A stretch of DNA of 64,000 nucleotides from Escherichia coli (GTDB taxonomy: Bacteria; Pseudomonadota; Gammaproteobacteria; Enterobacterales; Enterobacteriaceae). Made by a program: the position numbers. Positions 18,001-21,000 of the stretch are shown piece by piece. Every line of letters starts with the position of its first letter. Positions within the stretch are counted from its first letter, which is position 1. The stretch is taken from NCBI RefSeq assembly GCF_003790525.1, contig NZ_CP033635.1. One strand, written 5' to 3'.

Positions 18001-21000
18001 AAAAGGCACCAAAAGAAATATGACGAATATCCCGGGAGTGAGGGGATAATATACCTTTTAACAAAATCCGGGAACATGAAACGCCCGGAACGTTTCATGA
18101 GACATGCCCCGTGGGGAGCAGGGCATAACTGTGCGGAATAGCTTTCATTGTGATATCAATAATCACGGTATTCAAAATATTACGGGCCTGTGGGATCAGG
18201 TTGTTTTTTGTCTGATTCCAGAGGGAAGGGACGCTGTTTCGGTTCTCTGAACTTTAGTGATAATGAATTGAAAATCCTCATTTTTTGCTGCCATGCATAA
18301 TGTCTGTCCCATGAACAGGGGGGGCTCAATTCTTCATTCACCCATGCGTTAATATCTTGTTTCAGGTGTTGAAGCATATGGGGTGTTAATGCACTCATAA
18401 TAATATCCAGCGTTTTATGCGAGAGTTTACCGTAAGGGTCTGCAAGGATGCTGCTCGTTGCTTCGTTATTATCCACCATAAGTGGAAGTAGCGCTGATTT
18501 AACTTTTTCTGTCATTAGTTGCAAAAATCTACTGCGCAAATTTTCTTTACTGTTCATTTCTGAAGCCTCATCTGTTGTCGTTTGGTTTTCCTGAACGGGT
18601 ATGTTTATGAGACATGCTGGTACTGGATTATATACCTGATATATCCAGGGCTATAAACCTTTAGATCCTGATAAATATACATGAACGCAAAAATCAGATA
18701 CGGCCTGTCGGCTGCCGTTCTGGCGCTGATTGGTGCTGGCGCATCTGCTCCTCAGATACTTGATCAGTTTCTGGACGAAAAAGAGGGTAACCACACAACG
18801 GCATACCGCGATGGTTCTGGCATATGGACCATCTGCCGCGGTGCCACGGTGGTGGATGGAAAACACGTTTTTCCCGGAATGAAGCTGTCGAAGGAAAAAT
18901 GCGCTCAGGTTAATGCCATTGAGCGTGATAAGGCGCTGGCATGGGTGGAGCGCAATATTAAAGTTCCACTGACCGAAGCACAGAAAGCGGGTATTGCGTC
19001 ATTCTGTCCCTATAACATTGGCCCCGGTAAGTGTTTCCCGTCGACGTTTTATAAGCGGCTTAATGCCGGTGATCGAAAAGGCGCCTGCGAGGCGATTCGC
19101 TGGTGGATAAAGGATGGTGGGCGCGATTGCCGCATACGTTCAAATAACTGCTATGGACAGGTTATTCGTCGTGACCAGGAAAGCGCATTAGCCTGTTGGG
19201 GGATAGATCAGTGAGCAGAGTCGCCGCGATTATTTATGCTCTGGTTATCTGCATCATCGTCTGCCTGTCGTTGGCGGTCAATCATTACCGTGATAACGCC
19301 ATAGCCTACAAAGAACAGCGTGATAAAAAAGTCAGTGAACTGAAGCAGGCGACCGCCACCATTACTGACATGCAGCAGCGTCAGCGTGATGTTGCTGCGC
19401 TCGATGCAAAGTACTCGAGAGAATTAGCCAATGCGAAAGCTGAAAATGAAACTCTGCGCGCTGATGTTGCCGCTGGCCGTAAGCGCCTGCGGGTCAATGC
19501 CAGTTGCTCCGAAGCCGTGCGTGAAGCCACCGGACCCACCAGCGTGGATAATGCAACCAGCCCCCGACTGGCAGACACCGCTGAACGGGATTATTTCACC
19601 CTCAGAGAACGGTTGATGACGATGCAGAAGCAACTGGAAGGGGCACAGGAGTATATCCGCACTCAGTGCATTAAGTAGCCTTTTTGTTATCAGGAGAATG
19701 TATGAAGAAATTACTGGTAACCGCAAAGCTCTTTAATGGAAGAATCCCGTTCCGGATTTTACAGCGTGGTCGTGTTCTGGCTGAAGGTACATTCAGTGGT
19801 AAATGCACGGAATGTTATTCACGAATATATGAAGTGGATGCCACGGATGAAGATATAATCGTTGAGTGTAATGCCGGGATTGTATCGGCCACATTGCTTC
19901 ATGGGCGAATTGAGTTGTCGCTGGAGGATGCGGCAAATGAATTACCAACTGGCAAAACTTTATCGCGGTAAACATTTCGCAGGGTATGGGATTGCAGTTA
20001 ATGGTGAGTTACTGGAGGGGCAGCTTTCCGCCAGGACAGAGTCACGCGGAGGCGAGCCACCAACAGTCACTGTGACTTTCAGACTGACAGCAGAACATAT
20101 CGAGAATCAGCCCGTCATTCAACTGAACAGGGTGTGAGGTATTTATGCCATCACGAATCCCACGTGCCTGCCGTAAGCGTGGATGCGCAGGTACAATCAC
20201 AGACAGTTCTGGTTACTGCGATAAACATCGTGTGCGACCGTGGTTGCTCGGTATCTTTGTCTCTCTTGGTAACTTATTTGTTCGAACCGGTTTACAACTT
20301 ACAGGATATAAACATGCAAGAAGAAGCAAATAAAATTCTTGTTGATTTATTGACGAAGGCCAGCGATGGAATTGATTCCGCCATTGCATTCAGTCAGGCT
20401 CAGATTCCGGATGTTGTTCATCAGTTGCTGGTATGGAATATGGTTGATAGCCTGATTAAAACATTAATAGCCATTTCAACAATCCCTCTGGTTTTCTGGT
20501 TTATGAAGAAGCAGTGCCAAAGAGTTGAGACAGGTAAAATCGGTGATGAAGGATATTCATGGGAGAAGGGAAATCCCAAATACAGGCCGACAATGGTTTG
20601 GGATAGCAAAGGTGATATTAATCTTCTTATCGTGCCATTGGTTGGAGTTTTGACTATGTGGGGGATTTTTATTATTTGTGCAGTAACCAATATGACATGG
20701 TTAAAAATCTGGCTGGCACCTAAGTTATATCTAATCGAATACGCAGCATCACTAATTAAATAGTCCATTACAAAAGCCATTCGCTACAGAGTGGCTTTGA
20801 TAATGGCTTATACCCTGTACGGGATAACTTAATTGATATCCCTTTTAACGGATAAAGGTATTCAAGCCTGACACATCATTCGCTATATAGTCGCCGTATT
20901 CCCGTATGAACAGAAACCGTAGCCCGACGGGGAACTCCTTCTGCGCGAGTGTGCGGGAATAATCAAAAACGATGTACACCGGGTTTTTACCGCGTTAATG

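Follow-up and report, generated by a model that had tools for sequence, protein, structure and literature searches.

Described genes with which the gene considered here can be compared include ydfR of the Escherichia coli K-12 Qin prophage and bor of lambda. In Qin, the genes ydfR, essQ and rrrQ all lie on one strand, with ydfR placed between essQ (the holin gene) and rrrQ (the endolysin gene) and overlapping the start of the latter. The bor gene lies antisense to the late operon next to Rz in lambda and encodes a lipoprotein with a signal sequence; Barondess and Beckwith are said to have found it expressed in the lysogen. The bor gene is one of the lambda-type morons, which Juhala, Hendrix and colleagues reportedly defined in 2000 as extra genes placed between genes that adjoin in related phages, with a distinct base composition, their own sigma-70 promoter and factor-independent terminator, and expression from the repressed prophage. 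This report concerns a small antisense gene at positions 18180-18557 (minus strand) of a 64,000-nucleotide stretch of E. coli DNA (NCBI RefSeq assembly GCF_003790525.1, contig NZ_CP033635.1), hereafter the window. The window holds a lambdoid E. coli prophage, and near-identical sequence is carried by LR-31 and 18 other complete-genome records. Judged by its conservation and pattern of substitution, the open reading frame (ORF) is a genuine, selected protein-coding gene belonging to a family confined to Enterobacteriaceae prophages. The features of its immediate surroundings are as follows.

18180-18557, minus strand: the ORF, 125 residues from an ATG start, matching phrog_1853 (E 4e-41); a stop-loss allele
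18246-18557, minus strand: conserved core of the ORF, 104 codons, defined by alignments, the ratio of nonsynonymous to synonymous substitution rates (dN/dS) and the AlphaFold2 (AF2) model
18180-18245, minus strand: read-through tail (21 codons, then the new stop), defined by DNA alignment
18318-18324: G7/C7 homopolymer within the ORF (codons S-P-P), the site of a one-base deletion in 2 of 19 near-identical prophages
18558-18680: divergent spacer of 123 bp between the ORF start and the endolysin start, 38% GC
18075-18099: 11-bp hairpin in the spacer between holin and ORF, from RNA folding, about 80 nucleotides beyond the ORF stop
17751-18023, plus strand: class II holin (phrog_1350; Pfam PF16080, the HP1 holin family; weak PF04971, S21)
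18681-19214, plus strand: endolysin of the signal-anchor-release (SAR) type (phrog_7; translation read directly)
19196-19678, plus strand: Rz spanin, with Rz1 embedded at 19431-19616

The gap between the holin and endolysin genes measures 657 bp and holds the minus-strand ORF, which is convergent with the holin gene, divergent from the endolysin gene and thus antisense inside the Q-dependent late operon. A GAGG Shine-Dalgarno motif lies at 18569-18566 (minus strand), 8 nucleotides ahead of the ATG, and all elements of the arrangement described in the initial annotation (a 125-residue antisense ORF with a ribosome binding site, splitting the holin from the endolysin) are present in the window. 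The labels given there to the two lysis genes fared somewhat differently. The translated endolysin has a Gly/Ala-rich, SAR-like N-terminus and an E-x8-D-x5-T triad, in agreement with the designation of SAR endolysin. The holin is a class II protein of the HP1 family with two transmembrane domains, a weak S21 match and an MRM dual-start motif, features that make the name pinholin plausible yet leave it unproven. The endolysin ATG (18681) has no obvious Shine-Dalgarno motif, and the conserved stretch just 5' of it reads TGATAAATAT(C/A)C (18640-18683, plus strand). The start of the homologous rrrQ in K-12 overlaps ydfR, which suggests that translational coupling has been lost in the window.

Several lines of evidence indicate that the ORF encodes a protein. 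When the 657-bp gap was simulated 5000 times with a first-order Markov model, the probability that one of the six frames contained an ORF of 125 codons or more was 0.013; a chance occurrence is ruled out by the conservation of the ORF and by frame-specific purifying selection. Residues 1-102 match positions 57-158 of the 159-position PHROG 1853 hidden Markov model (E 4.3e-41), and a word-indexed search of 5.8 billion proteins recovered 15 relatives, while 21 came from 1.84 billion cluster representatives searched exhaustively with a profile. Full-length family members measure 104-107 residues, with identity down to 21%. Six residues (P41, G43, W72, E76, Q91 and K92) are invariant across the PHROG 1853 homologues, and the ORF core (residues 1-104) has all of the invariant columns together with the motifs PxG, W..(N/D)EE(L), WD..YA..QK and LF..LS. 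By the Nei-Gojobori method, dN/dS was 0.15-0.33 in every pair with unsaturated dS, including a value of 0.19 between the window and O157 copies. Among four close sequences, the annotated frame gave the lowest dN/dS of the six in all six pairs, and differences were enriched at third codon positions. Shine-Dalgarno motifs also precede the ATG in most of the diverged PHROG 1853 members.

The gene is widespread but has been poorly annotated. Similar DNA occurs in 673 of 5426 complete E. coli genomes (about 12%), including the O157:H7 prophage CP-933O. Deposited genomes of Stx2 phages also carry the gene, and the annotations of Stx2-86 and 12E129 place it between the lysis genes. The family has already been catalogued as PHROG 1853, and its members appear as 'uncharacterized' in UniProt and as 'unknown protein' in EDL933, the latter being the CP-933O protein WP_000138558.1, a PHROG 1853 member whose annotated start is an internal one. 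Searches of the literature library on this protein, on ydfR with holins, on DUF1327, on CP-933O and on antisense lysis-cassette genes returned nothing on this gene. Existing records do no more than call it 'hypothetical', begin it at an internal start or treat it as a pseudogene, and the present analysis corrects this annotation. Compared with its PHROG 1853 kin, the product is 52% identical to Stx2-86 gp06 (orf6) and 79% identical to the O157 protein, and shares the antisense position beside the endolysin and the predicted five-helix fold. The window copy differs from them in having lost the canonical stop and gained a 21-residue tail that is predicted to be disordered, in lying beside a rare HP1-family holin rather than an S21/Stx-type holin, and in having no PHROG 1085 remnant nearby (see below).

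The genomic placement of the family is strictly conserved. In every recovered context, the gene lies antisense to the lysis genes and directly 5' of either the endolysin gene or the holin gene. It is found between the holin (S) and endolysin (R) genes in the window, O157:H7 (EDL933 prophage CP-933O), Stx2-86, the Stx2a phage 12E129 and the related loci numbered L014-L016, and upstream of the holin in loci L013, L009, L010 and L012; in L011, too, it is antisense to a lysis gene and directly 5' of it. The order S, antisense ORF, R was seen in 48 of 49 IMG/VR loci, which are all of those with both flanks visible; the remaining locus, on a short contig with the same sequence as the window, stops ahead of the endolysin. 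A scan for related loci with closer alignment mostly returned the O157-type variant. Homology to other prophages extends without a break from the canonical 3' end of the ORF (about 18240) across the spacer and on into the endolysin, but stops on the side of the holin; the ORF and spacer are thus passed on together with the 5' end of the endolysin gene. The holin module (17700-18245) was found in 19 of the 5426 complete E. coli genomes, always with this ORF; eight of these records have the same length (5,067,659 bp) and may represent a single strain deposited more than once. Among phages, the module is closest to Escherichia PhiR46_1 and YDC107_1 and Salmonella UPF_BP1, with 75-82% nucleotide identity over part of the query. 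In PhiR46_1, a 75%-identical holin directly abuts lysozyme R, and the holin abuts the endolysin in L013 as well; the 657-bp segment is therefore an insertion relative to these contiguous pairs.

The usual tail-to-tail neighbour of the ORF family is a gene of PHROG 1085, here called 'long YdfR'. Its members and the related K-12 gene were located as follows.

L002:3292-4098, PHROG 1085 member
L017:3797-4438, PHROG 1085 member
L013:3838-4395, PHROG 1085 member
L009:1710-2264, PHROG 1085 member
L004:5555-5866, K-12 ydfR

PHROG 1085 proteins have a conserved C-terminal domain of about 107 residues (GRCMGxLQVAAEIE...DFDNPPFK...YLKGRI) and swapped N-termini, which consist of DUF1327 in Stx2-86 gp05 and of an apparent coiled coil in others; K-12 ydfR corresponds to the N-terminal DUF1327 piece alone. 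No NCBIfam or PDB relatives of the PHROG 1085 proteins were found. In Stx2-86, 12E129, L013, L009 and L010, the PHROG 1085 gene is intact and points toward the ORF. In the MNSKE/SPPC clade it has been reduced to remnants (O157, L005, L008 and L014), and a tblastn search of the window for PHROG 1085 returned no remnant. Within this clade, the dN/dS of the ORF is 0.19-0.31. Since purifying selection on the ORF persists where PHROG 1085 has decayed or been lost, its selection is independent of the partner, and its function presumably is too.

The product is predicted to be a soluble five-helix bundle. In the AF2 model, residues 1-104 form five helices with a predicted local distance difference test (pLDDT) score of about 90. 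The highest Kyte-Doolittle value in any 19-residue window is 0.76, the grand average of hydropathy is -0.69 for the protein of the window and negative in every family member, and no transmembrane segment or signal peptide was predicted in the ORF product. Foldseek gave no match against the PDB below E 0.7, and in AFDB50 the matches were confined to uncharacterised proteins of its own family, found in E. coli, Shigella and Salmonella, with template modelling scores of 0.8-0.95. Sequence-profile searches of NCBIfam and the PDB with the ORF family returned nothing meaningful, and five family members searched against PADLOC-DB 2.0 matched none of its families at E <= 1, so that no match to known anti-phage defence was found. 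The isoelectric point ranges from 4.6 to 9.6 across the PHROG 1853 family, which argues against a conserved DNA-binding surface. Regulators of the PerC/Pch type were considered as possible relatives; they too are small helical proteins encoded near the lysis genes of enterohaemorrhagic E. coli prophages, and PerC genes lie within a few kb of the ORF family in O157 and L005. Homology to PerC was rejected, however, at an hhalign probability of 0.2% and with no PF06069 match.

The reading favoured here, with moderate confidence, is that the ORF belongs to a moron-like unit that would have its own promoter, be expressed while the late operon is off and act through protein binding. A moron expressed in the lysogen had been one of the suggestions of the initial annotation, and a moron-like gene, putatively so expressed, is the best-supported of the readings considered. 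The ORF and the 123-bp spacer form an AT-rich cassette carried on the 5' side of the SAR endolysin gene; the cassette separates the endolysin gene from the holin gene, and these two adjoin each other in phages with related holins. According to the favoured reading, a promoter within the spacer would direct transcription against the Q-dependent late transcript, and expression would occur mainly when the late operon is silent, either in the lysogen or early after infection. The soluble five-helix product would bind another protein and lie outside the core lysis machinery. The tail-to-tail pairing with PHROG 1085 is ancestral, with the partner decayed or lost in this clade and the ORF still under selection.

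Two of the properties of morons are seen directly at this locus, where an extra gene lies between otherwise adjacent genes and has a composition distinct from that of its neighbours. The ORF core has a GC content of 39% and the spacer 38%, compared to 52% for the endolysin, 48% for the holin and 51% for the window, and the AT-rich divergent region noted in the initial annotation was borne out by this comparison. The gene resembles bor and other lambda-type morons in its unusual base composition and in being an insertion relative to related phages. As with bor, it is a small opposite-strand gene beside lysis genes, and the antisense position of bor beside the lysis genes of Stx2-86 provides a precedent for the moron reading. 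It differs from bor in that its product is predicted to be cytoplasmic rather than a lipoprotein, and in that it sits inside the lysis cassette whereas bor follows it.

The expression signals are less clear. A perfect TATAAT is found at 18632-18627 (minus strand) and is kept in four of six aligned close relatives. A hexamer scan of 11 family contexts revealed no family-wide conserved promoter. Beyond the ORF stop, the hairpin at 18075-18099 has 11 bp and an interrupted U-tract, with a fold z-score of -1.5 for the whole region, and might act as a weak terminator of antisense transcription. The number of terminator-like sites in the region is four, which is within the shuffle expectation of 2.6 +/- 1.8. 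One terminator-like hairpin with a T-run, at 18185-18202, lies on the late-operon (plus) strand, inside the read-through tail of the ORF.

It is important to note that several observations weigh against a moron-like unit. A consensus scan called no sigma-70 promoter in the spacer (18558-18680), the TATAAT has no recognisable -35 element and is absent from Stx2-86-type relatives, and the scan called no minus-strand intrinsic terminator after the ORF. The invariant adjacency of the family to lysis genes could also point to a function in lysis instead of in the lysogen. In addition, the Prokaryotic Genome Annotation Pipeline (PGAP) lists the gene as an 'incomplete, missing C-terminus' pseudogene in all five near-identical records inspected, and the frame is shifted in 2 of the 19 near-identical prophages.

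There are several potential alternatives to a moron-like unit. One is that the protein regulates lysis, tuning its timing by binding the cytoplasmic tail of the holin, the SAR endolysin or, ancestrally, the long YdfR. This is unlikely, even though the family lies directly 5' of, and divergent from, a lysis gene in every context down to 21% identity, is passed on with the 5' end of the endolysin gene, and originally had another lysis-cassette gene as its partner. The antisense orientation bars expression by late transcription. Known antiholins (S107, S21-71 and T4 RI) are membrane-inserted or periplasmic, and the candidacy of the ORF product as an antiholin or other membrane lysis regulator was rejected given its soluble, all-helical model with neither transmembrane segment nor signal peptide. 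The neighbouring holins vary (HP1-type, S21-type and holin_3_1), and the endolysin is not always of the SAR type, L009 having a different, soluble enzyme. Moreover, the ORF is intact where the holin and endolysin are dead or gone, as in two decayed prophages, L008 and L005, both of which lack the holin; the L008 endolysin has a frameshift, two stops and a truncation, and in L005 only 12 endolysin codons are left, beside chromosomal genes. An AF2 model of gp06 fused through a GS linker to the C-terminal domain of gp05 was not confident either (predicted template modelling score 0.42, pLDDT 65, with four paired rows).

An explanation of similarly low probability is that the ORF is a functionless, decaying remnant in this particular prophage. 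At the canonical stop position (18245-18243), the window has GAA where relatives have TAA or TAG, as seen in the DNA alignment; their C-terminus ends ...LSLKFR-TAA, and the window frame reads on for 21 codons to a TAA at 18182-18180. The GC content of the tail (51.5%) is unlike that of the ORF core. The stop-loss tail, the PGAP flag, the two frameshifted copies and the missing trace of PHROG 1085 would all fit a gene in decay. However, the 104-residue core is whole and has every family-invariant residue, and its divergence from the O157 copy shows the low dN/dS given above. In the AF2 model the tail has a pLDDT of 55-60 and no secondary structure, which is the basis for its predicted disorder. 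The PGAP flag arises because the sequence was aligned to a 90-residue reference starting from the internal Met15 and then found to have no stop, and the frame itself is unbroken. The exact 125-residue protein occurs on about 488 contigs, and a 125-residue variant of the same 90% cluster on about 470. The initial annotation had named disruption of the ORF in closely related prophages, together with the lack of a transcript, as what would refute its proposal; such disruption is mostly not observed, with 17 of the 19 near-identical complete-genome copies unchanged in ORF length and two (Ch1 and F1022) one base short in the G7/C7 run, giving a 92-residue product. These two deletions may be assembly errors, which are common in such runs. 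A phase-variable homopolymer was also considered and rejected, as the C7 run occurs solely in this lineage.

A role at the level of RNA is slightly less probable again. Under this explanation, transcription of the antisense unit would act by transcriptional interference or RNA pairing and so shield the SAR endolysin in the lysogen from leaky read-through by transcription that is not antiterminated, and the protein would be secondary. SAR endolysins use the Sec system for export and need no holin for it, so that leaky expression makes them hazardous. The unit is indeed convergent with transcription derived from pR' and directly upstream of the SAR endolysin, and in other lineages it lies upstream of the whole cassette. 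The frame-specific purifying selection and conserved Shine-Dalgarno motifs indicate instead that the protein itself matters, and the ORF is kept where no endolysin remains to insulate. The promoter of the unit is putative, and a search of positions 15500-20500 against Rfam matched two tRNAs only.

A broader proposal is about as doubtful as the RNA role. PHROG 1853 could represent an unrecognised class of cytoplasmic lysis-cassette regulators in lambdoid phages, encoded antisense so as to be made only while late transcription is off. The protein, or its transcription, would restrain the SAR endolysin, the holin or the long YdfR until Q-dependent transcription overruns the promoter. If true, cassettes with an endolysin that can be exported independently of the holin would have an inherent safety catch that interlocks lysis with lysogeny.

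The weakest proposal, that the ORF is a YdfR/DUF1327 homologue, can be dismissed almost entirely: the position between holin and endolysin is indeed that of ydfR between essQ and rrrQ, as the initial annotation observed, but ydfR is co-directional with both lysis genes and translationally adjacent to rrrQ whereas the ORF is antisense, Stx2-86 holds both genes next to each other (gp05, a 'YdfR family protein' with an N-terminal DUF1327 that is co-directional with S and R, and the antisense gp06), and the comparison with DUF1327/YdfR proteins suggested there refuted homology at the sequence and profile levels, with no Pfam family matched by the ORF and 12 relatives at E <= 0.1, DUF1327 included, a BLASTP E of 2.5 and an hhalign probability of 0.1% against YdfR. 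Positive controls for DUF1327 (PF07041) were recovered at E 1e-53 for YdfR and 2e-44 for Stx2-86 gp05. The connection between the two is therefore one of neighbourhood, in that they share the slot in the cassette and that the long YdfR is the usual convergent neighbour of the ORF family.

Other features of the prophage lie further from the ORF.

15421-16095: Q antiterminator gene, upstream of the ORF
16346-17059, plus strand: 237-residue ORF of unknown function, between Q and the tRNA genes (phrog_1521, E 2.5e-89)
17182-17335: two tRNA genes, just 5' of the holin gene
About 13034-13596, minus strand: ParE/RelE toxin and ParD antitoxin pair in the early region of the prophage
About 21195-21521, plus strand: 'TonB family protein' gene, after the lysis cassette and before the terminase genes

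The 237-residue ORF has a low GC content (41.7%) and a hydrophobic-looking product, and may be another accessory gene in the late leader. The first tRNA has a CAT anticodon and is assigned to Met by ARAGORN and to Ile by PGAP; the second is Arg-TCT, although strains Ch1 and LH50-c, whose prophages are near-identical, have it annotated as Lys. The toxin-antitoxin pair and the TonB family gene were mapped from the LR-31 annotation, and the 13034-13333 ORF of the former pair was confirmed in the window.

Within the window, the ORF is an ordinary, if uncharacterised, accessory gene with a harmless-looking stop-loss tail. At the level of the family, it is mildly interesting that the antisense placement by the lysis genes is strictly conserved and that the long YdfR was an ancestral partner. 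The analysis establishes a selected protein-coding gene that is distinct from ydfR, is always oriented away from a lysis gene and had this partner ancestrally. These findings make the PHROG 1853 family a candidate for a lysogen-expressed moron or for a new regulator of the lysis cassette in the prophages of Enterobacteriaceae.

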